A stretch of 61,553 nt of DNA, filler included, from Hausera hauseri (lineage: Eukaryota): NCBI GenBank assembly GCA_046269625.1. It is 9 parts of 9 records of this genome, joined end to end, with 100 filler letters (N's around TTAATTAATTAA, not from the genome) between each part and the next. Parts side by side here need not be neighbours in the genome. Positions count along the whole stretch, not along the records: positions 1 to 10,837 come from JBJURY010147756.1; 8 more parts are not named here. One strand, given 5' to 3'. The position numbers were made by a program, and so were the translations under genes. The notes below the pieces were generated by a model. It searched no databases. It saw nothing but the letters and a program-made list of their open reading frames with translations, and had not been told where the DNA came from. Each line of letters opens with the position of its first letter. Within the stretch, counting starts at the first letter, position 1. Shown here in pieces: positions 1 to 41,159 of the stretch.

Positions 1-564
1 AAATGTTATTTGTAGAAGTGGTATTAGAAGATTTCCTTGCCAATTATTTGTAAATGCATTAAAGTTATTTGAGATGTTGGAAAATTGACGTTAATGCATT
101 GTAAATATTATGTTTATATCTACCTGCTACTATATAAGCAGAAGGCAAAAGAGAAGAGATCAGAAACAAGTTATCAACTTAGGTTCGCAATTATCAACTC
201 TCTGTTAAAGACTTATTGACTTTCTTGTGATCGACATTATTGATATCGTGTGTGGGTGAATAAAGGTTATTACTATCATTGTTGTGTTGTAAAATCTATA
301 GATTTTCATCGTCTCTAAAAGACGATTTGTACTCCACTAAGGTTAAATTATCACTTAAAATCACAGTTAAGACAAGATTTTCTTTAATTTGAGGCAAGCA
401 TCTAAACGCACGCAGTATTCGCAATTAGCTCAAATTCTTGTAAAATATTAAGGCACAAGCAGATTACTAGGAGAACGAGTAATCTTAACCTGCTGATTCA
501 GCGATTAAAACTCGGAATAATATTGTTTTATTGGGAGAAGGTAAGGACAACCCCAACTGTAACA
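1..564 (+). repeat. 5' LTR (family A, 5'-truncated) of the contig-1 Gypsy element
   Basis: Ends in ...CCCCAACTGTAACA just before a PBS; TATATAA at 131-137 and AATAAA at 259-264; homologous to the reverse complement of 28705-~29260. Confidence 0.85.
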
Positions 565-568
565 TACT

Positions 569-586
569 TGGCGACCCTAGAAGGAC
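569..586 (+). promoter_or_regulatory. Primer-binding site, probably tRNA-Arg type
   Basis: TGGCGACCCTAGAAGGAC 4 nt after the LTR end; near-identical copy (TGTCGACCCTAGCAGGAC) on the - strand at 28084-28101. Confidence 0.8.
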
Positions 587-941: not shown

Positions 942-2022
942 ATGGCAGCAGATAATCCTGCGATAGCTCAGAAACTTGATATATTCACGTTCGACTAGTT
1001 AAATTTACCCGCATACGACGGTGACCCAGACAGATTAAATGACTTTTTACGAACTTATAAATTTCACTCAGAAGGTGCCAGCCTTGCGCCCGAAGTTATC
1101 ATTAAACGAATGTCTTTATATTTGAAAAATCTGGCCGCAGATGTCTATAGTGAACTTACTAATAATGAGAAGAAATCATGGTCCTCTGTAGTAGGAGTCC
1201 TAAATCGTAAACTATTGCCGACAGTCACGCCACAATAGAAGCCTATGGCCTTCCAGAACAGAACACAATAAAAAGATGAATCGGCTACTCAATTCGCTTT
1301 TGCGTTAAAGAAACTTGCTAATAGTTATGTAAGCACAATAAGGATAGCTAACGCGTCATAAGCCAATACAAATGAAGAACGTGAAGCGGCAGAAAAGGCT
1401 AGTCCTCCAGATTTGGATGTCATGATGACAACGCAGTTAATAAACGGTATATGGTCTATGGATTTACTTAAACAACTAATTTTGGCCCGACCAGACAATT
1501 TCGAGGCGGCATTACAATTAGCTCAAAACTTGGAAATGGCATTAGATAGATATGCCAGACAGAATGAAAGTATGACCGAATAATGATCGTGACAACCGAG
1601 ACAGAAACCGCAACAATAGAAGATTTAATGAAAATAATAAGGACCGAAGCTATGAGAATAGAGTTCAAAACCTCTCCAATCGCAGCACGAGATATGACAA
1701 TAGGAACTTTAATGATAATCGGAATATATATAATCCTTATAACAAAACAGGTTATAATCCGGATAGAAACCAGAATAATGACCGAAGTAATAAAAACCGA
1801 TATATAGATAATCGGAGTTTTAAAAATAGAAATAACTGATTCGATAAACAAGCTCAAGGCAAAACAATTGGTAGACCCAAATCACCAGTAAATGAAGATG
1901 GAAGACAAAGGATTGGTCGAGACGGAAATCTAATTTGTTATTCATGTGGTAAGGAAGGTCACATAGCTAGATCATGCCCTAATCCACGAAGTGTATCATT
2001 TGCGGAGACTAATAATGCTAGC
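942..2022 (+). pseudogene. gag: Gag (capsid-like region, N/R/D-rich linker, CCHC zinc knuckle)
   Basis: AQKLDIFTFD*LNLPAYDGDPD... aligns with the open Gag at 27051-27820; CYSCGKEGHIARSC at 1936-1977; several nonsense codons and one indel near 1575. Confidence 0.85.
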
Positions 2023-5000
2023 ATGATAAAGGATAATTTGGAAGGAATTTACGGGAAACGAGGTGATATAAGCATGATTATCGAGATGCAAGACTTACGA
2101 AGATGTGTAAGAAATATGGACGAATCTAATAATCCACAAGTAATCAAGGCTAGGAAGGAATACAAAGAGAAGTTGCATCAAATGGAAGTTTATCATGGAT
2201 TAAGAAAACCAACAACAGAATACAAAAAGGCTATAGCGCCCAAGAATACTAATATGGCCAGAAAGAAAAACCTAAATCCAGTGGCAAAGCCAACTACGCC
2301 TCCAAGCTTAGATTTAGATGCAGATACTAAGGTTGCGCCTAAAGATAAGGACAAAGCAACAAATGAGGTTGAAAGCGCATTCATTGGCCCACTGATACTT
2401 AATATAACGAAAAATAGAGGTAAAAGCCCCTCTCTTAGGAGAAGGTCGAGAACTCGTTCACGATCACCTACCATAAAGGATATAGAAAAAGCGGAAGATT
2501 TCACTATCACTCTAAGAGATGAAACAGAGTTAGACACTCCGAAAATAACGAACATTCCGAACATTAATGAGATAAATGAAATATGTCCGTTACCATTTAC
2601 TGAGGAGTCAAAAGAGGAAGAGTCCATTAAATTTACAAAGATCAGAAAATCTTGGAAAAATGCAAATGATCTAACAGAAATAAGAGACACTTTGAACGAT
2701 CCCGGAAGACTAACTGAGAGCTTACAAAAACTGCAGCAAATGAGCAAGCAGTTGGACATCTCAGGAAAAGAACAACAATTCATAGAGAAGTTATATAAGA
2801 AGTTGAAAACCGACATCCAGAAAGGAGAAGAAGATATACGGTATAAACTGCACGAAACGTCGCAAGATTTGATAAGAACTTGGCAAAATAAATTAGAACT
2901 GTGGACAATGAATAATATTGATTTTACGAAAATATGGTGGAGTAAAACTGAACCGTTTCTCGATCAAATTAATCAAGCGCAAGGATTGTTAAACACACTA
3001 AAGGGTAACCCAAAATTAAGGCGCCTAAAACGTAATTTAAAAGGATTGATGCGTGAGATAGAAGAAGCAATAATTTCTTATCTCCATAACAAGGCAGTTT
3101 ATAAACTGACAAATACAGACCTAGAAATACTGAATATAGACCAAACAGACATTTTCTTTCTATTGGAAATGTGCAACTTAATAAAGCATAAACCTCAGAA
3201 ATATCCAGATTTAAAATTACGTATCGGAAAAGAAAATGAAATATGAGCCAAAATTAACGACTTAAAGATCGGGATAGTGAACGTTGAAAACATAAAACTA
3301 AAGAGAATAATATACGCTTGTCTACTCGAGTTAGATGAATATAAGGAAGAATTCAACTACACGAAACAAATCATAGAATTTGTACGAGGATCAGATCACG
3401 AACTAAAGGAGGCTTTTGAGACTTTGGGCGAAATTATATACGCCAAACCAGAAGTATCTGAACAATTAAAGAAGTGGATAAAATTGTTACTCTCTATAGG
3501 CAAAGTGATTAATGAACGACTAAGGGAGTTCGCAGTGGTTGAACCTATAATGAAACACCAATTAGAAGAAATGCTACTAGATGTCGGCACGATGGAAGAC
3601 GAAGCAAAATTGCGAATTAAACTCGAATCATTTCGAGAACTTCAGTTTATGAATAAGGAGCAGGATATGACAACACTAACAGAAATGTATACTATGATAG
3701 AAGAGAAAGACTTCTACAGGAAAAGAAACAAGTTAAGTGATCTTCAGCGAAGTTTAGTAAACATCCGTTGGGAAGGAATACATAACTTAATGCAAAAACC
3801 GTTAAAGGAGATCTCGGTACAAGAAATAGAAATATTAGAAGTATGTAATGACCACCGGATTGCTCTCGCGCAGACACTGCAATATATACAGAATCCAGTT
3901 GAATGGTCACCAGGCTTTGACCTACATTGCCATTCTAAACTAACGGAAATTAGAAATGACCCACAACTGACAAGCAATGAAGCCCAATTCATAAGTAGGC
4001 TGATGGATGCAATAAATCCAAACGCCGAAGTGTTAAACCAAACGTATAAATTAATCTCACTATTGACAGAAATGGCGGAAATTGACGAAGGAATAGTGAA
4101 AAGATTGACAAATCGGATACGTCTGATAAAAGAAACCCGGCTACGTTCTGAGAAAAGACGACGCGAATTGAACGAAATACTAAGAGAAACAAAATTTTAT
4201 AAGAATAAATATTCCCTCACGGAATCAGAATTGATTGATAAACTAGAATTTGTACAGAAATGGCAAAGAGATAGAATATCCGAAGTAACTAATTATCAAG
4301 AAAAAGCTTTGATACAACCAAAGGTAATGTGTCGATTAATAAAACTGATACAACAAGCTTGTGGAAACGGTGATGGATTTAGGGTATCCATCATGAAAAC
4401 TCTACAACCGCAATTAAGCGAATTACGAGAAAGAGTTCAAGTTGAACATGCGGCACTAATGAACTATAAGTTACCTGGCGTAGAAAACGAAGCCGACTGG
4501 GATGAATACCTCCAAGGTCTAACCGAACAAAGTCAAAGAATTCCAATACATATTTATGAGTCACCTACTGGTGCACAGAAGACAAAATTCGACGTGCAAA
4601 TGCTGCTTGATTCCGCATTAGCTGTAAAGGAATTAAGCAATGTATTGAAAATAAACATAAGTGAATAAAAGTTGAAGAAATTGATTCCAACCTTAACTAA
4701 GTTATCCAGTAAAAACACTGCATATAGTGCAGTAACTAAACTTCTAATAAAAGAATACGCTAAACTATTGAAAAATAAACCAGAAGCGTAAATTAAAGTA
4801 AAAGTATCATCGGAAATAATGGACGACGAGGAATTTCAATGTACCACCTATACTACCATTGGGGATATAAAACAATAAATAATGGATAAAGATAATAGAA
4901 AAGAAGTTAATTATCGACTACATTTCAGAGGCAGAATATTAGATGAGCCAGAATTTCTAATAGATGTATGGATTATACCCCTTGAAGAAAATCCAATAAT

Positions 5001-5460
5001 AGCAGTTATCAACAGTGAGCAGACTAAAGACAAAGCCATAAGAAAGGCACATACAGAACACTGTTTTGGGAAAATTATGGGAATTCAGGATGCCGCAATG
5101 TACTTTGAATACTTACAGGCGGATGATGACAAACTGCAATACGATAAAAATTTGGTCCCGCTGAGTGTAACCGTACCACCAGTAAAACCAAAACGGCCAG
5201 TCGGAAGACCAAGAAAAATAAAAGAAGTAGATTATAATGCAGATTTGATTAGGGAACTGAGACAACTATCAGTACCTACTCCGAGCTCAGATAACGAAGA
5301 ATTGATAGAACTAATGAAAGATTTAATTAGGATAGTAAACTATACCGGACTCCAAGGCGACATATTGTCCGAAAAAGAAAGATTGATATATAATATAGCA
5401 CGGACCATGAAAACTTCAGATTTAAATGATTTAAAAGCACCCTCCCTGACAAAACAGTGA
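2023..5460 (+). pseudogene. ~1,100-aa charged, helical/coiled-coil-like region of unknown function, in frame with the Gag zinc knuckle
   Basis: ORFs 2023-3246, 3277-4668 and 4882-5460 share one frame with the knuckle and are separated only by single stop codons; rich in E/K/L/I/Q. Confidence 0.7.
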
Positions 5461-7552
5461 TTGACAGAATTATGACAGATAATACAACGGAAGAATTAAG
5501 GAAAGTCCTGATATATTTGGCGGTAAGAACTAACCCTCATCGAGAAAACGAATTTGAAAAGACAATTGGATTGGCTAGAAAAGCTGCGAGAAGAATACCT
5601 AAAGAAGTAAAATGGACTAAATTGTTTGAAAAAGAGGAAAATGAAAAAGGGAATAAGTTAGAAGATATGATACGAAATATCTGTTTAAATATAAGCAATG
5701 AATCCAACTGGTTAGTCAATCTACTAACAATAATAATGCTAGTGCAACAGCTAGGAGCAGTCACTATCTACGACTGTGATAAATTTAAGATGGATCAAAG
5801 ATATTCTCTAATGGATCTGAAAGCGTGTGAAGATGCCAGACCACACAAGTTAGAAACAAGAGAAAAGAATTACTTCCTATATCAGCAACAAGAACTGATA
5901 TCGCTAGACGGAATAGAATGTATGTTACGACGGTCCCGCAGTATTTTTCATTGTGGATTAATACACAAACATTCTTCCATAATCAAACCAACAACTCCTC
6001 CAATTCATATGAATTTGGAACGACAGCATTGTAAACAGGCTAGAGAGACTGGAAGAGTACAGTGGGATAATATGGATTTAGAAATGCAAGTTGGCAAAAT
6101 TATCAGGGCATATAAAGTGGTAGCTGGAAAGTTAGGCATGCATACGGGACACTGTAATGGAGCGGAATATAATACCGGAAAAGGGATAGAACCAAATATA
6201 GTAGTAGTGGATTTCTGCGAATCAAAAATGAAATCACAAAAAGCAATGTTTCATAGTGTCACCAAATTATACACGGAAAACCAGAAATGCCATGTACAAG
6301 ATGGAACCTGTGCTTTTAGAAGCTCGGTTATAATATGGGAACCTCCCTCAGGAAGAAGCTGTAATTTTATTAAAATAAAAGAACTCAAGTTTAATGAGAC
6401 CACCGGAAAGAGATACGTGGATAAACTAGATACCAATTCAAGGACACGCGAGGATGTATTAGAACATCCGACGCCCACCATATTAATCTCCGATCAACAT
6501 GGACTAAAGTTTATTAAGAAGGAAATGATGTCACGTTGCGATGTGGTAATGTTTGCTACTAACTACGAAGCATTCTTCGTAGCAGAAACTGAAATAAATG
6601 CGAGAACTTATCCGTTAGAAACACAAGATATCAGGATTGAGGACTACCTGAAGAATAGAAACGATTATTTCTATTACAAAGGACAAACTGGGATAACTGA
6701 GTTGTGCCACAAAATGATAACAAATGGCTGTAAGTTGGATACAGAGATCATGAGGACAAAACTGGCCCTTATATATGCCAACCAAGAACTGGCTTCGCCA
6801 ATAATTCCTATGAGAGAAGGAATTTTTAGTTGAGTCACAGGTGAAGTATTACTAACTTACGAATGTGAAAAGAGAGATGTATTCATCAATGTAGAAAAAA
6901 AACGTTGCATCCAGGAACTTCCAGTTATTTATCAAAACGTTCCCAGATTAGCTACACCACTGACAAGAGTATTATTAGATAACGCAACCCAACCTACTGT
7001 TCTTAAAGATTGTAAAGCGAGTTTAAGAGAACCCATGTTTAGGCTGGGTCAGCTTAACAAATGGAGATATTACTGCTACCCCAAGTAAATTGACTTGAAC
7101 AAATCTTGCGAAAGGAATTACAGACGATAAATTTCAAGACACCTCATCGAAAGGCATATATAGGCCTAAAGAGATTGAAGAATTTAGACAATTTCTCGCT
7201 TTTCCGTGACAGCGAACGCACGAATTAAATCGAGCCATGGCCTCGGTTGTAGACGACACACGATATCAGGCTAAATGGGAATCCCTTCTTGGTGCTAATC
7301 ACTATCAGAGTGACGTCAGAAATATTGTATAAGATTTGGGGAAGATTTTTAATTTTTGGACAAGCTGCATCGGGATTCTTAGCCATCTACTTCTTAGTAT
7401 AATTAATTAAAGCCGTAATACAAACTGTTATAAACGAATATAAAATATTCACATTGACAGGTTTCTCCTGTAAGATTATAACTCCAATTATCACCCCTTT
7501 TGGAAAAATGCTTAAAGCGTACGAAGAAAATCGATGGAAAAATGATGTATAA
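5457..7552 (+). pseudogene. env: Envelope glycoprotein, chuvirus-like (class III fusogen type)
   Basis: Internal signal WLVNLLTIIMLVQQLGA followed by VTIYDC; ECMLRRSRSIFHCG, VAGKLG...HCNG, VTGEVLLTYEC...RCIQELPV...TPLTRVL; membrane region IWGRFLIFGQAASGFLAIYFLV*LIKAVIQTVIN. This Cys/motif pattern is that of chuvirus-type glycoproteins. Stops and frameshifts after 6833. Confidence 0.75.
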
Positions 7553-8146
7553 CGTCATGTTAGATATTACAATCGCAAAGGAAGGGGAAGACCCTCGATT
7601 CTTAATAAACGCAAAAATAAAAAGACAATAATGCGGAAATACGACTTAGATGATGACGAGCCTAAGGGAGGAGAAGGAAATGCCAGAATAAAGTTACACA
7701 GTAAATATGTACCAATACCCATCATGCTACCAACTGCGCCGATTTACGAGGACTGCGATCAAAAGTCAGTCATATCCTACAGATCTGATACCTATCGAAC
7801 ACCTATAGACTATGAAGACCCTTATGGAAAAACAAAACAATATGGAGTATTACGGAAAATGGACGTTATCAACAAAGGACTAGCAAAAAATGACCACGGA
7901 ATATTATACTCGAAAAGGATACCTTGTCACATAGAATCGAAATCAACGATCTGGGAAAACTCGAAGTTATGCTCAATCCCAGGTCCTTTACCTCAAGAAC
8001 CGCTCATCGACTACCGCGTCACGGAAATAACAACTAATGATTTGTACCCGAATGGAAAATTATGACAATTAAGGCAGGATATCATTTCATCGCCTGAAAT
8101 AACGATAAATGGACATAGAATCTCCACTATAAAACGGTCCAAGATA

Positions 8147-8520
8147 GTGTCAAATTGCTACGGAACAGTAGCAGAAGGAAGACCCTTCGCCAAAATACAC
8201 ATCGAAGATTGGGAAGTGTATGCGTTAATCGACACAGGATCAGAAAAATCGTTTATAAAATATGAATCGATCCTAACCACATTGCTAGACCAACTATGTC
8301 CATCCGCATCATCGGACCTAGGCAGCGTAGGTGCATCTGGACAGGTATCAAAGCTGAAATTTAAGTAGACTCCTACCGTTTATATGATGGGCCAAGCACT
8401 TCCACATGAATTTGCGGTAATTGACCAATTAATAGACGATGTAGTACTGGGTTGTGACGTATTAAAACTGATACCAGGTATGGCAATTGATGTGCTTAAT
8501 GGAAAATTAATTAAGCTCTA
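8147..8520 (+). pseudogene. Retropepsin-type aspartic protease
   Basis: VYALIDTGS (D at 8231) and downstream DVVLGCDVL; one TAG at 8366. Confidence 0.85.
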
Positions 8521-9039
8521 ACCAATAAAAGGGACAAAAGTAATAAAGAAAAGGAAATCAGGCGAAGTATGGATTCCAGTAGATGAGGACATTCTGCATA
8601 AAACTGAAATGATAATTTTTGCACAGATTCACCAAGACGAAGATCTACCGGTATATTTCGAACCGCAACAGAATATCGATCCAAATCTCATGCTTAGTAA
8701 TATTCTATGTAGAGTAGTGACGGGACGAAAACCAATCAGATTAGTGAACAGTGCACCAACTCCTATACGATTGCACGCTAACACTACTCTAGGTCACACT
8801 TGTAGAGTATCGGCGGTAACAATTAATAAAAACCACACAAGTGCGCTGAATTTCCGCCTCATGTTGAAACCAAATTCTCTCCAGAAGCGTATTGGAAGTT
8901 CTACGAATTATTATGTAAATACAGCTCAATAATTGCGCAAAACAAAGAAGACATAGGTAGAGCAAAGGCTGTAAGATTAAGTATTCCATTAAGGAAGAAA
9001 CCAGACTCAAATGACGAGATCGATCTAGAAGAACAAAAA

Positions 9040-10837
9040 ATGCCAAAGTGGTACCCGCCTCCTCATTCATTGAGACCGGAGATAACTAAAGAAGCAGAGC
9101 GAATGTTAAAGGCCGATATAATTCGACCAAGTTACCGATCATGGTTCTCGCCTATAATCATGGTTAAGAAAAAAGGAACTACAAAACATAGGTTTTGTAT
9201 AGATTATCGCGCATTGAACACGTTGATGATGAAAGACTCGTTTCCATTACCGTCAGTAAAAGAAGCTTTAGATAGACTATCAGGAGCAAAATGGTTTACC
9301 ACTCTCGACTTACAATCGGGATACTGGCAAGTGGAAATAGAAGAAGAAGATCGATATAAAACAGCGTTTAAAACGCATGATGGTGTATACGAATTTAATG
9401 TTATGCCTTTCGGCATCACTACCGGACCAGCTATCTTTACTAGAATGATGAATAAGATGCTCATGGGACTTGATCATGCTTTCGCGTACTTAGACGACGT
9501 GATGATAGCATCAAAAACAGAAGAAGAACATTTAAAGGACATTGAAGACACGCTTATGCGATTAGAACAAGCCGGATTAAAACTAAATCCGAAGAAATGT
9601 AAATGGGCACAGAATGCAGTCTCGTACCTCGGACATATAGTTGGAGAAGGAGGATCAAAACCGGATAAATCATTGTTAAATAAAATATCAGATTGTATAG
9701 AACCACAAAACCAAAAGAAGTTAAGGCATTGGTTAGGCCTATGTGGGTGTTATGGCACTTACGTACCAGATAACTCAAAAATTAATGCACCATTATATCG
9801 TTTACTCAAAAAGGGAAATAAGTGGAGATGGACAGAAGTGGAACAAAAAGCATTCGATGAAATGAAGAAGGTTCTGACAAGCAAACCAGTTTTAAGATAT
9901 CCGGACTTTAACTTACCATTTATTATTAAAACAGACGCAAATAAAGAAGGCATAGGATACGAATTAACTCAAAAACGCGAAGATGAAGAATTAGAACATC
10001 CAATAGCTTATGGCGGACGCTGATTAAAGAAAGCAGAAAAAAATTATTCGGTTACCGAACTGGAGACATTGGCAGTTCAGGAAGCACTACGACACTTTAA
10101 TGTCTATGTCTACGGACAAAGGATTATAATAGTGACGGATCACAAAGCAGTTACAACACTAAAAGGACGAGCTAATAACCCAGCATGCAGATTAAACCGT
10201 TGAATAGAGGAAATTTCACTATATAACATTGAATTTCAATACAAACCGGGTAACAAGCACGTCGACGCTGATGCACTCTCAAGGTTAAAAACAAAACGAG
10301 TGCGATCGCTACATTTAAAAGACCACAACTTGCACAGCTGATTGAACGACAAAGAACTCTAATATCGGAGAAGACAATTAGAATTACAGCTGAGCAGGCT
10401 AAAGATACGGTTATTTAGCAAATTATTGAGTTCGTACAAAACGACAAAATACCAAAAGGACGGCAATTGAAAAAGCATCTACAGAAATACAAACATAAAT
10501 ATCATGTATCGGATCAAAATAATATTTTGTATTAAGAAAGAAAAGGAAAAAGACTAATAGTTATTCAAAAGGGATTGCGTGTCGAAGTACTTACGGCCGA
10601 ACACGATTCATATTTAGCCGGACACATGTCTTGGAAGAAGACATTGGAAAGGACACTAAATAAATACTATTGGCCAAGCATCTATATTGATGTAAAGAAT
10701 TGGGTAGGCGCATGTGAAGTTTGTGCGACAAAACAAAAGAAGACAAAGGGCTACATAGCAGAATTAAAACCTATAAACGTACCAGACAGGCCCATGCAAG
10801 CCATGTCTATGGATATAGTAGGACCGTTGCCGAAAAC
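9040..10837 (+). pseudogene. pol: Pol: reverse transcriptase, RNase H and integrase N-terminus
   Basis: RFCIDYRALN, LDLQSGYWQV, MPFG, YLDD (9487), KTDA, NYSVTELE, VTDHK, ADALSR, H-x6-H...CEVC, SMDIVGPLP; internal TGA stops. Confidence 0.95.
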
Positions 10838-10937: not shown

Positions 10938-11602
10938 TTCTCTCCAGGTTTTTTGCCATTGGTGCCAGCGCTCCCAGCTCCATTGTAGTTAGCTTTGAAA
11001 GGCTGCTCGGCAGAGTCTGTACCTGGGCTCACTTCGGAGGCTTTACTGATTGGCTTCACCTCAGCATAAGGTCCACGTGGTTTACCAGGAGCTGGGATTC
11101 GACTCGGCTTACCCATGTTTGAAGCTACTGCCGGGAAGCCAAAGGATTTGGGCTTACACTGGAATAGAGACTGTTCTGACTTTGAAAGTGTCCGAGACAG
11201 AGGTGGTCTCCCGCCACCTGCTTGACCTGCCTTGGTCTGTCCGGCTTTGTTTGACCCTGTTCCAGGACGGCTTGCATCATCGTTCCATCGAGGGGATTGG
11301 TACAGGTGCAGCTTCTTCTCAGCGTCGGTGAGCACACACAAGTTGCCAAGTGACCGCTGCTTGCGGAGCCTGGAAGGATTGTGGACTGGAATGGGAATAG
11401 ATCCAGAGGTGGGCCGATACACCTTGAGCTCTGACCCAGAGGGACGAGAAGGCCCCTGGGACAGAGCGAAGGCCTTGACCTGTGGCTTCTTGGAGGCCAT
11501 GGCCTGGGTTGAAGTGTCCTGGCAAGAGACAGCAGTGGACCTCAGGTCCAGCTCTCTGGGCTTAGTTGTCATGCTAATGTTAGCCACATTAGCCTCCAGC
11601 AT
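10938..11602 (-). CDS. nav1: Teleost neuron navigator 1-like N-terminal coding exon (fish DNA; 3'-truncated)
   Basis: LRKQRSLGNLCVLTDAEKKLHLY, PLSRTLSKSEQSLFQ and GKPSRIP...GPYAEVKP match vertebrate NAV1; acceptor ttcctacag just upstream (exon starts 11607); much higher GC than the rest of the window. Confidence 0.85.
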
Positions 11603-11899
11603 CCCTCCTGTAGGAAGAAAAGCAACAGCATCAGTCATCCACCAGAAATGCACACACACCAGCTGATTAAAGGAACCAGAGAAAAGAAGGGGACAAAGAA
11701 ATGCGTAAAGACACAAAGGCTGACTGGTTGTCGCCCCCTTTTACCCCAGGGTCATGACTGAGTGAGCCAGACTCCCTGCAGTGTGAGACTGTGGGTTCAC
11801 TTCTTTGCTAAAAATGATGAGTGGTGTTAGTAGAGTGACAGTCATACTCACTGCTGATAATCCATGGATTTGCAGATCCCTGTCCAGCACCAAAATCCA

Positions 11900-12786
11900 G
11901 GGATACCAAAATTTAAAAAATTAACGCATTAACTCAAACAGACGTTATAAACATGACCGGTAGCAAGGTATCAAAAAGTATAATGTGCAGATTGTTCAAA
12001 AAGGCCGGAATAACCCGAAAAGTTCTGAAGAAAGGGCCGAGCATTGTTGCTTTCAGAATAAATTATATGGAGCGAGTAAGATTAATGAACTGGGTAAATT
12101 TGGCGGTCGGTTACTTGTATTCTTGGATGAAACAGGATTCAACCTCCACATATCGCAAAACTACGGTTATGCAACATGCGGACAGAGAGCAGTGACATCA
12201 CGGCCATCCAATCGTGGAAAAAATATATCAATGATGGCTCTGATCAGCATAAATGGCTTGGTGGAATACGAGCTGCTGGACAGTAGTTACAATTCTGGAT
12301 CATACGTTGAATTTTTGGAAACCGTACATAAAAAAGGAGGCTGTTTAAACAATCCGATTTTGATACTGGATAATATAAGGTAATTCGTTTAATAAGAAAT
12401 AATTTACTAACCAAATATAACAGGTTTCACACATGTTCTGATGCTGAAAATCGGCTATTCCAATGGGGCGTACAATGGGTATATCTCCCACGATATAGCC
12501 CCGAATTCAATCCGATCGAATATTTGTTTTCGGAAGTAAAACGGAAGGTGGCGTCTCAACGGCCAAAAGCAACAAACAGAAATGACCTAAAGGTGCTTTA
12601 TAAATATTTTATTTTATAGTCCAACCTTAAATTTAGGATCTACTGCGAAGAGTTATGAAAACGTATTTCAATCACTCGATGGCTGGGTACTACAGCCACT
12701 TCGAAAAGATGCTGATTAAATATAAGAAAATTTTCACAGTCACCGAAATTACGAATGCAGACTGCGACAATGTAAATATTGAATAA
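11900..12786 (+). mobile_element. Tc1/IS630-family DD34E transposase, 5'-truncated and frameshifted, with two 44-nt introns
   Basis: FLDETGF, LILDNIR|FH and LPRYSPEFNPIE; splicing GT-AG introns 12380-12423 and 12593-12636 restores the frame to TAA at 12786. Confidence 0.85.
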
Positions 12787-14175: not shown

Positions 14176-14966
14176 TGTAAAAGAAATACCTCAATGAGGC
14201 CGATGGATTGCAGTTAGACCAGAATGACAATATTGATAAGTTTATAGGCGAAGATTTATTGGTCTTACGACCCTAAACTTATACTCTTTACTTAGGACTA
14301 AATAGAGTCTAGGGTTTCTCCTTCCCTCTAGACCTGAAATTAATTATTCTTATAAGCAACCTGTGGGGTTGCCTCCAAGTCTTATTTGACCTTAATGTGA
14401 GAACCGTTCAGGAGGAACACTGACGGTTTATCCCTTACTTAATTGATTTTATACCTCCGGCTAATTACAGGGCCGGATACCAAAAAGGGATAATATTTTA
14501 GGTTTATTAATTATACCTTATTACTAAACTTATTTAAAATTATCTATACGTAAGACAGAATTAATGATTATGAATAAAAATATATTGTGAGTTATTAAAT
14601 AGACGAAAACAACTAAAATATGACATACAAATAAAATCAAAGACAAAATGAACCAAAAAGCTTACACGTATTGTAAAGATGAAGCATTGACATAACGCGT
14701 TGAATACTCGATAGTTGTTAAGTGATAAATGATTGAACATACAAGTATTTATAGTAAAATATTGCTGACACCACTTTAGGAAAAATTTACATACCATTAA
14801 AATAATTCGTTGATAAACAAAAATCAATTTAAACATAATTCAATATAAATTAAGTCATATTTAATTTCCATATAAGTTATTCTTATAATTCGACGGAAAA
14901 TCAATTTGTATTGTCAACAGTTCGGGGAATTGTTTGTTATTTGTTCTGGAGTTCGATTACTGCACA
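14176..14966 (-). repeat. 3' LTR (family C, ~790 bp)
   Basis: TGT...ACA termini; preceded on the - strand by the polypurine tract AAGGAGGGAGAAGA (14967-14980); other end abuts methyltransferase coding sequence. Confidence 0.7.
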
Positions 14967-17574
14967 TCTTCTCCCTCCTTAGATGAAGCTGTCCACAGCT
15001 TCAAGGGGTAGGTTTCTAAGGTACCATTCGAATACTTGTAATTGGCGGAGTCTATCCGCAACCATTGATTCCCTTTTCGGATCTTCTTTTTAAGAGTGAC
15101 AGTTTCTCGTGTAGATCTCTTTTTCTTAGTAGATTTTGTTAAATCCACTAGTATCGGTTCATTAGAATCGGTGGTGGGGGATGATTGACTGGTAGTCGGT
15201 TGGTTAGAGGCAAACATTGTAGACGTATTATCAATGTCCATTGATTCACATTTGGAGTCTTCTGTGAGAGCTAACGTCAGGAACTGTTCGTTATCAAGTA
15301 CGATTTCGCTTGTGATTGATTCTGATTGGTTTGGTTGGATTTGAGTAGATAGTTTCTGAAGGTTTCCCTTTTCGATCTTATATTCGTTGATACTATTGTA
15401 AATTTTTGATATTGTCGCCGTCTTCTCTTTGGTCCGCAGAGGGTATACGATGTTGTTGTATTTCATTAAAATTTGTTTATAGGTCAATGTCTTATCTGGA
15501 TTTATTTCTGGGTGATGTAATAGATCTCTAATTCCTAATACTGAATTAGTATCAAAAAGGTCGAGATGCAAATTCGTATTATAGATATCAAGTCCGATTA
15601 TCATTTTTCCATTAAGCTTCTTTCTGATAAGGGATCTGATTTGGTAGGCATCTGTTTGTCCGGTTAAGTCTGGTTCTTTTAGTCCGGTAATTAGACTGTT
15701 ATAATTATCTACTCGTTCACGCGGAGCGACGAGCTTGTCCAATATAATGTTTCCCTCTGAATCTGCAATGGTGATTTCTATAAGGGTCATTTCTTTGTTA
15801 CGCAATGGAGTCAAGAGGAAGGCAGAATTGGTCGCCAATATGACCATCTGATTTTTCGATTTTATCGGCAATCTAGAGAAAGAGATCCCAGCTACAAGTA
15901 ACTCGCGGTTAGGTAAATTTGAGGGATAAATTGGCTTTTCGTATTCAATTTGTGGGAGGATTTCTCTCCTCGTAACTTCAATGTATATTATTGGGGACGG
16001 GCCGCCAAATGTTCTGAGGATGATCGTAACGTTTCTGTAAAATCTCTTATCCAGGCGGATTGTAGTGTAAGCTGTCACATCAAGAGTATCGGTGAAATCG
16101 TTTAACTGGGCTCGACTTTTTATCTGAAAGCTTCCCTTTGCAACTGATATATAAACTGATGTCGTTTGACTGGAAATGTCAATTAGATCAGACAGCTTTG
16201 TAGACGCGGCTGGTAATTTCATGATTAATCCTGATCTCTGATGGAGAAGATGACCTTTAAGGTTGTTCGGAATAAGATTTACCTTTCCATAATAGGCATA
16301 ATCTTTATTGTCTGTCTGGTTCAGGTTGTTAATGATATTGTAGTAGAATGACTTTGTTCGGTCCACAATTTCTGATCCTTCTTGAACTAAAAGGAAATAG
16401 GTGAATGTTAACCAAAAAGATTTGAGGAAAGGGATATAAATATAGATACTTTTATTAAGTTTATCACTCTGATACGCCGCGAGAAATTTAGTAACTCTAT
16501 TCTGTATCATTGTACAGTAATACACTGTTAAGTCTGTTGGTCGACAATCTTGTCGTTTATTTATTCGATTTTTATTGTTAAGAGGAGTTGATGGGCAATC
16601 TTGCCATTCGGGTTTGGCCGGTTCTTTGACCGATAATTTCTTTATTAACGGACGATTTTGCCGTATAGAAATTTGTGGAATTTCATCATTAGACGCACTT
16701 ACTTCTATTGTTTCATCTTCCCTTAATAATTTTAATTGGTTTAACATTTGTCTTATTCTATGCTGTCGTCGCCTCATTTTTGAACAATAAATTACTAAAG
16801 GTAAGAATATGGCTAGTAATATTAAGAAAACAAATAATACACTAATTATCCAAAGATTTTTATTCGTAGTTAATTCTGGTTTTTGTGTAGTTACTCTTCG
16901 TATAATTTTTGGGGTGGTTATTGTTTGCTTTAAAGTCTTTTCTGTACGAGAAACTGTTCGTAATTTTTCTCCTTCATCATCTAGTTCTATTATGATGACT
17001 TTATAGTTTGTATCGGCTTTTAGGAACATACATGCAGATGTCGGTTCTTCAGGAGTTAAAACTCCTTCACTAATCACTCTGTGGTTGAGATAGCACTCGA
17101 ATTTTATATTTGTGTTCTTTAGATCGGGCACTGTAATAACTAGTGAGTGACTTGTTGGTTGGATAATTATATCCAATTCTTTAATATCTTTCTCAGGTTT
17201 CGTCGTGGAACTGATTGCTATCTTATGCGGTATTGTTGATATACTTGATTGTAAAGTAATTATTCTTTTTGTTGTAGTGGGGATTATTTTTATCGATGAT
17301 TTCGCTATTATCTCTGGACCATCTGCTGTTCTTGACCATGTATGACCATCATTCGTGGTCCAATAGTATATAGTATACTGTTTATCAAAAATGATAGGGC
17401 AACATTTATATGGGTCTTGATAGTTTGGTTCACAATGTATACTATTATTTCCATCAAATATTATATACTTGAACTTTCTATACCTTGTAATTACAATATC
17501 TGGTTCCGCTGTTACACAAGGTCCGTTCTTCATGACCTTAGTATAAAATGAAATAAGAAAGTATGGTCGATGAA
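14957..17574 (-). CDS. Retroelement 3' accessory ORF (>858 aa, open to the contig edge): FN3-like domains, Thr-rich stalk, TM helix, degenerate REX4/ISG20-like DEDDh exonuclease fold
   Basis: LKADTNYKVII (FN3-like); LWIISVLFVFLILLAIFLPLVIYC (TM); VILATN...EITIADSEGNIILDKLVAPRERVDNYNSLITGL...MIIG...GIRD (REX4-like); stop codon lies inside the LTR. Confidence 0.7.
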
Positions 17575-27050: not shown

Positions 27051-27820
27051 TCTCTAGCATATCGGGCTAATTCTATTTCTAAGTCTTGAGCTAATTGCAA
27101 TGTCTTATCAAAATTCTCCGGACGTGCTAGAATCAATTGCTTTACTATGTCTTTAGACCAAATACCGTTTATTAATTGCATCATCATAACGTCTAAATCG
27201 GGAGGAGTTGCTTTCTTTGCGGCTTCACGTTCTGCTTCCTTTTTAGCCTTGGCTATGTTTGCTATCCTTAACGTTCTCACGTAGCTGTTTGCCAACTTCT
27301 TTAATGCAAAAGCGAATTGGGTTATCGTTTCACCCTTTTGTTGCACTCTATTCTGGAAAGCCATTTGTTTTTGTTGTGGAGTTACGGTCAATAAAAATTT
27401 TAGATTTAAGGCTCCTACTACTGAGGACCAAGTTTTCTTTTCATCATCTGTGAGTTCACTATAGGCATCAGCGTCCAGATTTTTTAAATAAAATGACAAA
27501 CGCTTAATCATCACATTAGCTAATAGTCCAGCACCTTCTGCATGCAATTGGTATGTCCTTAGGAATTTATTAAGTCCGTCCGGGTCTTCGTCGTATGCCG
27601 GCAGATTCAGCGAATCGAACGTAAATATGTCCAGCTTCTGAGCTACTGCTTGATTTTCGACCATATTCTCAAAGTTTATTAGATTTTTCTTAACTACCTT
27701 ACGAGTTCTAATTCTCTTGTCAGGGACTTTAAATTTAATAGGCTGTTCAACAGCGTTTAGATCAATAGGTTCAGTGCTAATTAAGTTTGATTCAGATAAA
27801 GTGCGTCTAATCAACGTCAT
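27051..27820 (-). CDS. gag: Gag of a family-B element related to the contig-1 element (open to the contig end)
   Basis: Colinear and closely similar to 942-1560; lies downstream of a PBS and LTR. Confidence 0.85.
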
Positions 27821-28083
27821 ACCTTCTGTATAAACTCTATTACGTGTCTCACGAAGAATAAAATTTTCTTTACCGTTTAGAATGAGATTTAAGTTATTCT
27901 CTGACTTATTTCTATCGATATTCGATCTTGATTTAACAATATGTCGTTATAATACTGAGGGTTTTCTTTAAAATCCCAAATTTTAATTTCACAATAATCT
28001 TCAATCAATTATTTGATGTGGTAGCGCTGATCGCTAATATGTCGTTACTTTTCTCTAAAAGTCAAGTCTAGCAAGTGCAAACT

Positions 28084-28101
28084 GTCCTGCTAGGGTCGAC
28101 A
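28084..28101 (-). promoter_or_regulatory. Primer-binding site
   Basis: TGTCGACCCTAGCAGGAC, 2 nt from the LTR end; matches 569-586. Confidence 0.75.
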
Positions 28102-28103
28102 AA

Positions 28104-28704
28104 TGTTAGTAGTTAAAGGTGGGCCCTATCCAACACCCAACTATAACAATATCAAATTCGAAGTTAATAATGGTTTTAAAAGCAGATAAGTTCTAACATT
28201 CTCGTTAGAATGGTTGCACTATTTTAACTTGAGTGTACTGCTTGCAGTGATTGCATAATTTACGAATTCTCAACCTAACTTTAAAGTTTAAATCGATTTT
28301 AAAACTTTGTGTGGTGCAAATCCCTCGTAACGAGCGACGGAAAACTATGAGAGTTTACAACGAAAATTTATTAAACAACAAATAAAAATACTAATAGCAA
28401 TATTGAAGATTCACAATGCAATTCAATGTCTTTCTATTAGTCTTGGACTCTTCTCAATGCAAATGTAGATTCTGTTTATTCAAACTGACTGATTAAAAGT
28501 TGGCTAACTTACTGATAAATGACTTATATAGTAGTCGACATCCGTTTATTTACATTTCTACGAATTCATTTTAATCAATTTTGTTCATTTTCAACAGGTT
28601 CCAGTTTTATTTACAATTATTTTCTCGTTTGTTCACAAATTGTTTATAAAATTCAATCAATTATAATTAATTCCAACTTCCGTTTTCAGTAAATACACTA
28701 TTTA
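28104..28704 (-). repeat. 5' LTR (family B), interrupted by a family-A element
   Basis: Ends ...AACTACTAACA before the PBS; CTACTATATAAG TATA motif at ~28521-28536 shared with family A. Confidence 0.75.
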
Positions 28705-29363
28705 TGTTACAGTTGGGGTGGCCCTTACCGTTGCCCACTATATCAATATTTTTCAGCAGGTTAGGATTACTCATTCTCGAGGAATCTACTTGTGCCTTAA
28801 TAATTTTAGATATTTTGAGCTGTACTGCTGGTACTTCGTGCGGTTTAGATGCTTGTCTTAGTTTGTAAATTCTCGACTTAACTGTGATTTTAAGTACAAT
28901 TTTACCCTTATGGTAGTCAAATCGTCCTTAAGGGACGATAAAAAACTATCGGAAATTTGACAACCAAACAATTAAAATAACCTTTATTCTTAAACACGTC
29001 ACGAACTCAACACAGTGAATCACAAAATATAACTTTAATATTCAATAGCAGTTTCACAGTTCTGGTTTGAATTGGTCGATTCTAAGTCGACGTTTATTAT
29101 TCTGACTTGTTCTGAAAAAAGCCTGCTTATATAGTAGCAGGGTTTTCGATATAATGTTTATCTACAATTAAATCCATTTTCTTTGGATTGTATAAGATTT
29201 CTGCGTAAATTAAATTCAATTTCCTGTATTTACATACTTGCTTCCAACATTTATTTCAAAATTGTCGAACTATTTATTTAACTTTACTTTAATGAAATAA
29301 CAATTCGCATTTCTCGTTCAAATTGTCTATTATAGTTGGCTGATTACTTTCTCGACTACTACT
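28705..29363 (-). repeat. 3' LTR (family A, ~660 bp)
   Basis: Reverse complement matches 1-564 (e.g. GGTAAGG.C.ACCCCAACTGTAACA, CTGCTACTATATAAGCAG); preceded by purine tract AGGGAGGA (29365-29372). Confidence 0.8.
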
Positions 29364-31437
29364 GTCCTCCCTGAGCGGCATCCTCGAAGTAGCCCATTGC
29401 GTCAGAAGAGGTGGCGCCCAACGTCCTAGGCCGTCTTAATCGATTCATTCTTTCTGTGAGGTCTGTTGGGAAATTTCGTTGGTCTTGACTGTTTATTGGG
29501 CTTGTCTCCAGGTTATAACTATGGTAAGGTTTGATCCTAACAATTCGTGTGTAGCTCCCGTCTGAATAATACTTCAACTCTGTTGCCTCTGCGCGACATA
29601 CTGGCATGTCGTTTTTCCGTTGTCGAGTGTCCATTTTTCCAGACAATCTCGGCAGTATTTGTGGCGACAATCGTGGTTATCTAATACCACATATCCTTGC
29701 CTTAAATTTGCGTCGCACACAGGGCATTCACTATCTTCTTTGTCCCAATCATCTCTGTCTAAATCGACTTGAATAGTTAGCTCGATAGGTTCAAATACAA
29801 GTCCATCTTCATCTTGGTATAAGTATCCATGTATCACCTTCTGTTTGGGGTTAACTGAACTCTTATGCGGGTCACAATTTACTTGTATCAAGGTCCAATC
29901 CGCAATAAGGTCCTTATCCAAGTCGGGAATCTTTCCTTCCGTTTTATATTTTTGATATTGTTTCTTTAGTAATATTCATATTTGCTTGTCTACGGGCACT
30001 ATTATCTTACCAGTTCTCTTTGAACGGAAAATCGATGTAAGATAAGTACCTGGAGCAAACTTGATGAAAAACATAGCTTCTTTTATTACCTTCTTACTAT
30101 AGTGCTCGGTAGTTACCAACATTTTAGGGAAATCTTGGGCTGTACTGCAATGTACGTCTTCTTTTTTCCTTTTTCTATTAGGGCAATGATTTCCGTTATT
30201 ATGGGACTCCTAATTCCCTTTTTTAATGGTTCTATACTTTGAGAGATACTCGGCCTGTTTTGTTGGCTCTGCGCTCCTTGCTTCATCTTCCTTTTTCTTC
30301 TTGAATAAGTAGTTGTAAATAGATGATGTCTTCATGGTCCGGGGTTTTTCTTCTAACTTCGTCTTTTTAATTATTGTTTCTGGCCTAGGTTCTTCATTTT
30401 GTTCTTTTTGGGACTTTGATGTTCCTGCTAGTGTCCTGTTTCCTCCTTTAATCATCGGTAACTCCATCTCATTTTTTTGTTTTCCTTCCATAGGTTCGCG
30501 GATTGTGATCATAAGGCGATGCTTGTCTGTAGATTGGATGGTTCTAATCGGAGAGTAGGGCTTGAAGGTTTTCCGATATTTGATATCTACATGTTCGGTT
30601 TCCAAGGAATTGCGTAGATTGTATATAGGGTTTTTAGGTATCCATTCATGTTTTCACTTTAACATCTTATAAGTCTCCTGCAAATATTGGGAACGCTGGC
30701 TGGCTGTTAAAAGTCTTGGAATTCTATTTGGGTTGTTGGTCATTGTTTCAACTGTTATCTTGAAGAAGGCTTCTGGTGCGGTTAGTCGGTTTCTTCCTTG
30801 TACGATTTTCTCCATTTGCTCTTGGACTACTGGATGGGTGGCTATTTCCCTAAGTCCGGCAATATTTGCATCGGATATTCCTAATAGCTCAATTTCCATT
30901 TTTACATTGTATCCTGTTATCATACAAACATAAAGACAATAGCTTAACTCTGAACGGACCTGTAGAATATCTTTTCCATTTATCAGTTGTTCTTTCCTTA
31001 GACCAGTCACTTCCGCATGTGATTCCTGAACATGTTTCCGAGGGTTTACAATTGTTGAGTATAATTCAGTCTCATCTCTTTCTCGAATAGATACTTCCAT
31101 CGGTATTCCATATCCATCGTCTCCTCTACCGTAGTTTGTGGCCAGGATCCTTATGTTGCGGCCGTCTTGGACTAACCTATACGATTGCAGATGTTCATCC
31201 TTTTCTGCCTCTGTTGGTCTCTGTTCGAACTGTAGAACCGACAAGCCTAAGTTGCAGCTCTCTTTGTAAGTCATCTCGAACATCAGTTTAACCGGTAAGG
31301 CTGCTACTATGAATTCTAATCCATAATCGATGGCTTCTAAGCCTCGGCCACTTATTTTAAATGTGGTAAATTGGTATTGGCGCCTTTCGTTACAGTCCCA
31401 TTGCTGTCCCTTTATTCTGTAGTAAACTTCGCCGTCG
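29359..31437 (-). pseudogene. Family-A 3' accessory ORF: degenerate REX4-like exonuclease fold, Lys/Glu-rich linker, C3HC4 RING finger
   Basis: ORFs 30654-31283, 30210-30605 and 29574-29921 share one frame separated by single stops; RILATN...EVSI...IVNPRKHV...VTGLRKEQL; CPVC...CRHKYCRDC...C(fs)PVCR; ends inside the LTR. Confidence 0.7.
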
Positions 31438-32270
31438 GGACTCCTAATTCCCTTTTTTAATGGTTCTATACATTGAGAGGTACTCGGCCTGTTTTTTGGC
31501 TCTGCGCTCCTTGCCTCTCATCTTCCTTTTTCTTCTTGAATAAGTAGTTGTAAATAGATTATGTCTTCTTGGACCCGGGTTTTTCTTCTAACTTCGTCTT
31601 TTTAATTATTGTTTCTGGCCTAGGTTCCTCTTTTTGTTTTTTTTGGGACTTTGATGTTCCTGCTAGTGTCCTGTTTCCTTCTTTAATCATCGGTAACTCC
31701 ATCTCATTTTTTGTTTTCCTTTCATAGGTTCGCGGATTGTGATCATAAGGCGATGCTTGCCTGTAGATAGGATGGTTCTAATCGGAGAGTAGGGCTTGAA
31801 GGTTTTCCGATATTTGATATCTACATGTTCGGTTTCCAAGGAATTGCGTAGATTGTATATAGGGTTTTTAGGTATCCATTCATGTTTTCACTTTAACATC
31901 TTATAAGTCTCCTGCAAATATTGGGAACGCTGGCTGGCTGTTAAAAGTCTTGGAATTCTATTTGGGTTGTTGGTCATTGTTTCAACTGTTATCTTGAAGA
32001 AGGCTTCTGGTGCGGTTAGTCGGTTTCTTCCTTGTACGATTTTCTCCATTTGCTCTTGGACTACTGGATGGGTGGCTATTTCCCTAAGTCCGGCAATATT
32101 TGCATCGGATATTCCTAATAGCTCAATTTCCATTTTTACATTGTATCCTGTTATCATACAAACATAAAGACAATAGCTTAACTCTGAACGGACCTGTAGA
32201 ATATCTTTTCCATTTATCAGTTGTTCTTTCCTTAGACCAGTCACTTCCGCATGTGATTCCTGAACATGTT
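30203..32270. repeat. ~1.23-kb tandem duplication (30203-31437 and 31438 to the contig end)
   Basis: Near-identical sequence at an offset of ~1234; junction at GGGACTCC. Confidence 0.9.
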
Positions 32271-40329: not shown

Positions 40330-40931
40330 TTTTGAGGCCAAAAGAAAATTTGATGTTGAGGATAGATACTGGCGGGAATCATGAATATATTGGAAATAAG
40401 CATCAAAGAATCCAATATAGGCACCATATCATTTGTCGATCCAAATGGTCCTGACATTTTAGTATTAAAATCCGATTTTGGTGTGATTACCTCTGTGTAT
40501 GAAGTATTTGTTGATGTTTATGAATCACCAGAATTGGAATGTTCTCTTATAACTAAATTAGCCGTATTGTGATCCATTGACAGAATATTCGATGACCGAA
40601 GATTTACAATTAAGGAAATAAATTTTTTAGACGCTCCTTCAGCAAACCCTAAATTGTTGAGTCTTTCTTCATTTAAGGAAAAGAAATCTCCAATAGTAAT
40701 GTTGTGTAGATAGGAATGATATTTGTGAAGTCTGGCATGTTTTAACCAATCCAGAAAATTTCCCATATGTAATTGTGAATATTTCTGAACATCTATGGAT
40801 GTATTTGGTTGTTCATCATACGGATGATCCATGGTCTCAATGATTGCTTTAGCTTTGATATTAATTGAGGGGTTTTCCAGTATTGTGCTTCTAGATTGGC
40901 ACAACCAATTCTCTGTCCTGCGGTTTTTTGG
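40330..40931 (-). pseudogene. Smaug/SAMD4/Vts1-like RNA-binding SAM-domain gene fragment interrupted by an LTR
   Basis: DWLKHARLHKY...LNEERLNNLG...GASKKF matches the Smaug SAM signature; in-frame stop at 40518. Confidence 0.65.
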
Positions 40932-41159
40932 TGTTACATCGGTATTCTGAGTACGGAAGTGGCATTTACGTGCATTGACCTTCAACGAATCAGTTTTAGA
41001 GATGCCGTTAAGTTTTTTATGATCTTCTCGTCCCATCCGACGGATTAAATTCTTAGAGCGAAGAGTTGGACCCGACTATCGATCCGACGCGACGATAGTG
41101 GACGCCCGGCCTTGCCCAACAAAATGAGCCAAAGGGCACCGGCCGCCATGGGCACCACA
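40932..41159 (-). repeat. 3' LTR (228 bp) of a CsRN1-like Gypsy element
   Basis: TGTGGTG...TGTAACA termini; PPT GGGGGGAGGG at ~41163-41172; start resembles the LTR at 26762. Confidence 0.75.

Follow-up and report, generated by a model that had tools for sequence, protein, structure and literature searches.

Burro/GYPSM1 elements of planarians, giant gypsy-like long terminal repeat (LTR) retrotransposons reported in 2019, carried an in-frame envelope gene (env) between gag and pol (PMC6431247). In the passages of that report available, the first open reading frame (ORF1; 4,873 amino acids) comprised Gag with CCHC knuckles, Smc, MATH, ubiquitin/SUMO-like and BCL-2 motifs, env (matching mononegavirus fusion glycoproteins), protease (PR), a dUTPase-like part, reverse transcriptase (RT), RNase H (RH), and integrase (IN), and the internal region reached 25 kb, with BIR and ankyrin motifs. 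GAG-ENV-POL Ty3/gypsy "errantiviruses" with a gB-type envelope were described from Platyhelminthes, Bryozoa, and Nematoda (Chary and Hayashi, eLife 2026, PMC13524379): the passages available stated that these elements did not form one clade and that their gB-type ectodomains were flanked by two membrane segments, and supplementary file 1 gave 9 flatworm and 10 bryozoan elements, with 6 in Schmidtea mediterranea. The non-canonical endogenous retroviruses of nematodes (Sacco et al. 2022) were metaviruses with env before pol (as cited in the available passages of PMC13524379), and Anakin and other BEL/Pao elements carried a chuvirus glycoprotein (G), according to the parts of PMC7642597 and PMC10084718 available. 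The window analyzed here was a stretch of 61,553 nucleotides from Hausera hauseri (assembly GCA_046269625.1), composed of nine contigs joined by N spacers, and its contig 1 (1-10837) was filled by one decayed Ty3/gypsy element truncated within integrase at 10837. With a probability of roughly 0.8, this was a decayed copy of a multicopy Burro-like Ty3/gypsy element that had env between gag and pol, family-wide in frame with pol, and likely encoded one Gag-insert-Env-PR-RT-RH-IN polyprotein.

The element displayed the order 5' LTR, Gag, CCHC, insert of about 1,200 codons, signal, envelope, membrane anchor, linker, PR, RT, RNase H, and IN. A read-through path, translated with X at the stops, gave collinear Pfam matches to zf-CCHC, PF24664 (in three pieces), RVP, RVT_1, RT_RNaseH, and Integrase_H2C2. 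This path had 23 stops in 3,360 codons (0.7 per 100), far under the 3.5-11.7 per 100 of 14 off-frame controls, and thus represented a decayed coding path rather than chance. Six frame switches were present (near 1580, 5430-5457, 7086, 7300-7350, 8830-8930, and 10353), two of them within env and one between the insert and the env leader; being decayed, the contig 1 copy could not itself make the polyprotein. Its assignment to Ty3/gypsy was based on (i) a Pol arranged as PR-RT-RNase H-IN whose RT, RNase H, and H2C2 integrase were of gypsy type; (ii) a Gag capsid and CCHC nucleocapsid upstream of Pol; and (iii) the position of its RT among animal Ty3/gypsy RTs in trees built without a BEL/Pao or retrovirus outgroup. 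An earlier note on this DNA, made from the sequence alone, had described a Gypsy element with a chuvirus-like env embedded in one polyprotein, and its landmarks were all located: CCHC knuckle (1936-1983), signal (5712-5768), Cys-rich ectodomain (18 Cys within 5430-7085), and membrane segment (7376-7432). The frame map likewise agreed with its observation that, apart from single stops at 7400, 7550, and 8063, frame 2 stayed open from the membrane segment to the DTG motif of the protease.

The sequence comparison was applied to sister copies, many of them diverged, from four public runs (X1-X4) of four studies; 32,809 contigs were placed in X1, and 30 of 30 bins along the element were covered in all four runs. 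Of the X1 depth, 99.4% lacked the stop at 7400 (60 contigs), 98.4% that at 7550 (59 contigs), and 99.6% that at 8063 (39 contigs); all X2 depth lacked these three stops between env and protease, and X3 and X4, whose coverage excluded 8063, concurred on 7400 and 7550. Stops 4876, 7207, and 8519 were likewise not common to the sister copies, and no majority length change was present over 7330-8110. At the best 40 of 74 places, linker included, 21 of 24 differences private to this copy fell at codon positions 1-2, while 12 of 16 sites variable among the copies fell at position 3 in the same frame. The absent stops together with this codon-position pattern indicated that the anchor, linker, and protease frame was constrained across the family: Env and Pol lay in one frame family-wide, and the multi-copy check for one ORF asked for in the earlier note came out in its favor over the stretch from env to protease.

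The sister contigs covered env as deeply as gag in four of four runs, and the finding that would have spoken against the earlier note, namely other copies lacking env, was not made. The same depth bore on the view of Env as a passenger, that is, either a product of chimeric assembly or a non-retroviral glycoprotein gene that had entered this copy or its subfamily, and in both cases outside the polyprotein. Jingchuvirales glycoprotein endogenous viral elements are often found beside fragmentary Gypsy and BEL elements that have not captured them (available passages of PMC10084718), and the window assembly was itself fragmentary, but the equal depth of env and gag, the codon-position constraint on the Env-linker-PR frame, and the location of the nearest envelopes in retroelement polyproteins of the same order largely refuted this view and left it hardly credible.

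Env was a class III fusogen, as judged from fold matches that had moderate Z values yet were consistent with one another and with Pfam. Its Pfam match to PF24664 (Monjiviricetes_fusion) was split into pieces at 5712-7052 (E 2.6e-36), 7135-7251 (E 0.031, weak), and the membrane-proximal region (E 2e-12), and nine nearly invariant cysteines were kept in the ectodomain. A HMMER search with the stop-free 5709-6830 against 1.84 billion representatives returned 136 proteins, and the best of them (E 1e-48 to 1e-35) were mostly long retroelement polyproteins; word-seeded protein searches with env gave no match, unlike this full HMMER search, env-based scans of metagenome and viral contigs gave no locus, and a single-sequence PDB search gave no fusogen. 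The env profile of 84 sequences matched herpesvirus gB in the PDB (E 1e-4). The model of 5760-6830 had a mean predicted local distance difference test score (pLDDT) of 92.8, and its top 12 VIA fold matches were all class III (herpes gB, rhabdovirus G, thogotovirus Gp, and baculovirus GP64), the best being HSV-1 gB (Z 9.9, root-mean-square deviation [rmsd] 7.2, 300 aligned); Atlas gave a PF24664 cluster with 0.91 at low recognition, as weak evidence. These results bore out the fusogen check against gB, gp64, and chuvirus G. The label chuvirus-like held as to class III, with the glycoprotein of Wenzhou crab virus 2, a chuvirus, among the matches at E 1.4e-8, but was loose as to kinship: insect and chuvirus G proteins matched at about E 1e-8 versus 1e-48 for embedded retroelement envelopes.

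The relatives, all metagenome or assembly proteins, showed env inside longer reading frames. Among the 18 of 136 env matches run through Pfam, 11 had a protease after env in one ORF; 6 of the top 30 had a CCHC before env, and 5 had both a CCHC before and a protease after it, while none of the other 106 had a CCHC before or a protease motif after env. Seven proteins carried env and RT together, P0013 (2,146 amino acids) and P0205 (2,499 amino acids) ran unbroken from Gag to integrase, and P0137 was a 4,844-amino-acid Env-Pol protein with ankyrin repeats. P0002 was filed under a bacterial metagenome-assembled genome, probably as host contamination. Two further features of these polyproteins were seen: (i) a second cassette after integrase, composed of a signal-like stretch, a beta-rich ectodomain, and an anchor, in P0001, P0002, P0137, P0176, P0178, P0181, P0183, and P0184, with which the polyprotein would be predicted to cross the membrane again, and (ii) tandem retropepsin domains in P0001, P0006, P0008, P0010, P0019, P0025, P0137, and P0176, with up to six Pfam retropepsin stretches in P0137.

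As to one polyprotein, the earlier claim stood for the Env-Pol fusion, which was family-wide, and was matched by the single-frame relatives P0013 and P0205; continuity from the insert into Env across 5430-5457, which we infer, was likely in the window family. The following weighed against the single-polyprotein reading: (i) a slippery-type heptamer (X XXY YYZ) lay in frame at 5430; (ii) among the differences listed, a length difference by the 5430 switch reached only 17% of the depth in X1 (10 contigs) and 22% in X2 (a single contig); (iii) no contig spanned the whole element, so that no intact family copy was seen; (iv) P0003 stopped after env, while the Pol protein P0183 lay on an equal-sized contig, an arrangement that may reflect separate ORFs or a break; (v) the window RT was a long branch, its grouping with the env-in-ORF set was weak (FastTree 0.62), and a quick IQ-TREE run did not resolve its placement; and (vi) the membrane topology was deduced from hydropathy alone. 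The RT was at most 48% identical to any relative protein compared. The RT phylogeny suggested for this element placed it among animal Ty3/gypsy RTs and fell short on the env-in-ORF grouping.

The first two of these points made a programmed -1 shift possible. Under such a two-ORF arrangement, Gag plus insert would end at stop 5458, and Env-Pol would be reached by frameshifting in the 5430-5457 overlap, giving more Gag than Env-Pol. The two frames shared a -1 overlap of about 28 nt, most sister-copy depth had no length difference there among the differences listed, and gag/pol frameshifting is common in Ty3/gypsy elements. This arrangement was nevertheless unlikely: the element was A-rich and contained 13 such heptamers in the 3,360 codons of its path, the 70 nt downstream of 5430 folded only weakly (-4 to -6 kcal/mol), and some sister copies varied in length by this switch as at three others, two of which lay within or near Pol, where a programmed shift would be unexpected. 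Moreover, a single frame joined the corresponding ubiquitin-like module to env in P0002, P0004, P0008, and P0016. In all, the sister copies varied in length near four frame switches, and loose contig ends accumulated at 7307, beside one of the env switches.

The insert between CCHC and Env was covered over 2020-4600 by sister-copy contigs in four of four runs; this part gave no firm Pfam match, and an Atlas search with 3247-4665 gave no match. The in-frame inserts of the relatives had the same ubiquitin-like module as the window insert, whose module was the best match of the five-relative hidden Markov model (HMM) in the six-frame translated window, with a Pfam ubiquitin match of E 0.014, under the cut-off. 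An AT-hook-like GRP(R/K) motif was observed behind this module at 5194-5217 (+), and P0001, P0004, P0008, and P0137 had similar motifs in the corresponding position. A Bcl-2-like domain stood directly before the env signal in four relatives (Pfam Bcl-2 in four of five rows); the Bcl-2 part of the relatives matched Bcl-xL in the PDB (E 0.006), and for the model of this part of P0010 the 26 highest-ranking fold rows were Bcl-2 family (first row Z 8.6, rmsd 3.4, 105 aligned). The corresponding slot in the window was non-significant (hhalign score 15.7, equalled by 9 of 150 shuffles), and reading across the 5430 switch with X raised the HMM score only from 5.3 to 7.4 bits, a score equalled by 22 of 500 shuffles and thus no demonstration of a domain straddling the switch.

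Under the preferred single-polyprotein reading, Gag and the insert would be made in the cytosol, the internal signal would direct Env into the lumen of the endoplasmic reticulum, and the anchor at 7376-7432 would stop transfer, leaving the linker and Pol on the cytosolic side again. The N-terminus of Env would be released by signal peptidase, and the retropepsin of the element would separate Pol from the tail of Env, with a conserved aromatic-Pro motif preceding the protease as a possible cut site. Such a polyprotein would yield Gag, Env, and Pol in equal (1:1:1) amounts at a single membrane, from which enveloped particles could bud. Hydropathy peaks of about 1.9 or above were confined to the signal-like stretch 5712-5768 (Kyte-Doolittle 19-mer 1.92) and the anchor (2.20), and the single strongly hydrophobic segment after the ectodomain, present also in the single-ORF relatives, fitted a cytosolic Pol.

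The Env-to-protease linkers of 13 sequences contained a Tyr-Pro pair in 11 cases, PTAP or PSAP in 2 (the window one included), no enrichment of PPxY, and the pattern hydrophobic-YP-x(1-3)-hydrophobic in 7, versus 0.5 in shuffles (0 of 2,000 reached 7). These counts were a lead only, because the linker bounds were set by eye, the patterns were picked after viewing the sequences, and the linkers were related. Two readings of the aromatic-Pro motif, both modeled on retroviruses, are possible: a late domain of the ALIX type or the N-terminal cut site of the protease. It is also possible, if doubtful, that Env of the same polyprotein would serve not cell-to-cell infection but an intracellular role (membrane tethering, nuclear envelope or vesicle entry), an alternative that concerned the last step only and was compatible with the favored layout. 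Retroviruses do not make Gag, Env, and Pol in such a 1:1:1 ratio, and this counted for the intracellular role, as did the available passages of PMC13524379, in which particle or infection data for such elements were confined to Drosophila. Against it stood the nine cysteines and confident class III fold of the ectodomain, together with the resemblance of PTAP and hydrophobic-YP in the linker to late domains of the endosomal sorting complex required for transport (ESCRT). A more far-reaching proposal was very unlikely as a whole: that Burro-like elements outside planarians, possibly those of a fish-parasitic flatworm, formed a compact lineage with an 860-residue insert in place of most Burro cargo, a -1 frameshift uncoupling Gag from Env-Pol, ESCRT signals (PTAP and LYPx) on the Env-protease linker instead of on Gag, and infectious enveloped budding.

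The features of the element and of a second family member are collected in Table 1.

Table 1. Features of the contig 1 element and of a second family member in the window
Feature	Position	Strand	Basis
Candidate 5' LTR	4..564	+	Ends TGTTA...TAACA (inverted); 561 bp
Candidate primer-binding site, TGG start, 4 nt behind LTR end	569..580	+	Sequence
Gag capsid part, 4 stops, frame 3	942..1580	+	tblastn match from P0009 Gag, E 3.5e-7
Arg/Asn-rich Gag segment plus one CCHC knuckle (1936-1983)	1576..1983	+	zf-CCHC E 1.7e-6
Charged, probably coiled-coil insert, about 860 codons, 1 stop, unexplained	2020..4600	+	Best Pfam CCDC39, E 0.022
Helical plus ubiquitin-like module, across 3 stops	4603..5022	+	HMM from 5 relatives, E 1.3e-11
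Slot of Bcl-2-like domain of 4 relatives; includes frame switch 5430-5457	5430..5633	+	HMM 5.3 bits
Putative internal signal or anchor of Env	5709..5768	+	Hydropathy; same place in relatives
Envelope ectodomain of class III (gB-type), interrupted by stops and by frame switches near 7086 and 7300	5760..7330	+	PF24664, fold model
Membrane-proximal region, anchor (7376-7432), tail start	7310..7519	+	PF24664 positions 532-601, E 2e-12
Env-to-protease linker, predicted to be cytosolic; shares the frame of Env and protease; PTAP at 7730, LYP at 8042	7520..8173	+	Frame map
Retropepsin, DTG at 8231-8239	8174..8470	+	RVP E 0.0014, just under cut-off; aligns with P0001 and P0137 protease
dUTPase-like PR-RT spacer (weak)	8540..8824	+	9-sequence profile, best PDB dUTPase E 0.22
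Reverse transcriptase	9163..9642	+	RVT_1 E 1.9e-39
RNase H	9829..10221	+	RT_RNaseH_2 E 5.3e-33
Integrase zinc finger plus core start, truncated at contig end	10566..10837	+	Integrase_H2C2 E 1.5e-17
Second, diverged family member, 5' end (LTR part, stop-free Gag), truncated by contig 5 end	27053..28989	-	blastn 68-73%

The LTR boundaries were inferred, because contig 1 ended before any 3' LTR, and the window contained no tRNA gene. Troyka was rejected as a candidate, its ends being CG...CG (passages available of PMC12440569) versus TG...CA in the candidate LTR here. The capsid part gave no Pfam match of its own, while Gag of a sister copy gave a weak Retrotrans_gag match (E 0.015). The second member on contig 5 shared the LTR region 258-566 (73% identity over 314 columns); 146 of 202 residues of its Gag were identical, and 100 of 163 base differences fell at third codon positions. 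The LTR-end motif occurred twice in it, about 500 nt apart within 28150-28990 (-), with a primer-site-like sequence only after the second, which pointed to a duplication in its leader or an insertion there.

The other contigs of the window contained the following. Contig 2 had a GC-rich (about 51%) stretch of 266 codons at 10941-11740 (-), without a Pfam match and resembling an exon of vertebrate neuron navigator 1, which abutted AT-rich Tc1-like DNA (DDE_3 at 11964-12380) and may be fish host DNA, a chimera, or a captured piece. Contig 2 also had, at 14960-17572 (-), an ORF of 871 codons that encoded a single strong membrane segment, again without a Pfam match; its C-terminal part, which we take to look like a DEDD exonuclease, matched an ORF of contig 5 at 30654-31514 (-) with E 1e-7, and the two ORFs were possibly 3' accessory parts of large retroelements other than this one. 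A role of the membrane-protein ORF as the missing 3' end of the family was not supported (E 0.23 to the post-integrase cassette of the relatives, no common LTR). Fragments at 49184-50329 (-) and 58818-60674 (-) of contigs 8 and 9, with a weak DNA_pol_B_2 match (E 0.018), presumably resembled a protein-primed DNA polymerase B of the Polinton/adintovirus type, and a SAM-domain fragment of contig 7 at 40521-41075 (-) (SAM_1 E 0.007) was possibly a host gene piece beside a gypsy element.

The layout being already published, the finding added one more family and not a new kind: the element was a new Burro-like family of an already described layout, and the earlier view of an unusual lineage, taken as undescribed, did not hold against the same order in PMC6431247 and PMC13524379, as far as their available passages go. 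A literature search for Burro-like elements in parasitic flatworms gave no report beyond PMC6431247. What the present data contributed was a copy-level demonstration, from a very abundant family, that Env and Pol were kept together in a single frame under constraint, together with two testable details undiscussed in the available passages of those two papers: (i) the aromatic-Pro motif before the protease, as cut site or late domain, and (ii) the Bcl-2 fold just before the Env signal in relatives, which might let this signal serve at the same time as a tail anchor of the Bcl-2 type.

Compared to Anakin and other BEL/Pao elements, the window env belonged to the same Pfam family PF24664, as far as the passages available describe those elements, but the window Pol was marked by gypsy-type RT_RNaseH and Integrase_H2C2, with the integrase only partly in the contig. 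DUF5641 and Peptidase_A17, which are marks of BEL/Pao elements, had no Pfam match in the window Pol. The nematode endogenous retroviruses, known here by citation only, had env before pol as in the window, with nematodes as hosts, and reportedly carry a continuous gag-env-pro-pol ORF. The GAG-ENV-POL elements of PMC13524379 shared gene order, gB-type env, and Ty3/gypsy Pol with the window element in the passages available, which held no statement on a single reading frame or a processing model; unlike them, the window copy was decayed and would fail their intact-ORF filter, the comparison being one of descriptions. Likeness to Burro was also drawn from the published description and not from sequence alignment. 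Burro and the window element shared Gag with CCHC, a long insert with a ubiquitin-like motif, env between gag and pol, and a high copy number; for the dUTPase-like PR-RT spacer of Burro the window gave weak but consistent matches (7 of 10 PDB matches of the spacer profile were dUTPase or dCTP deaminase, the best at only E 0.22), and the BCL-2 motif before env in Burro corresponded to a non-significant slot (5.3 bits) in the window and to a clear domain in four relatives. They differed in that the window element had a candidate LTR of only 561 bp, no MATH, BIR, or ankyrin match in the part up to 10837 (the 3' half lying beyond the contig), and one CCHC knuckle instead of two or three, and it was on this last difference that the element was classed as Burro-like and not as Burro.

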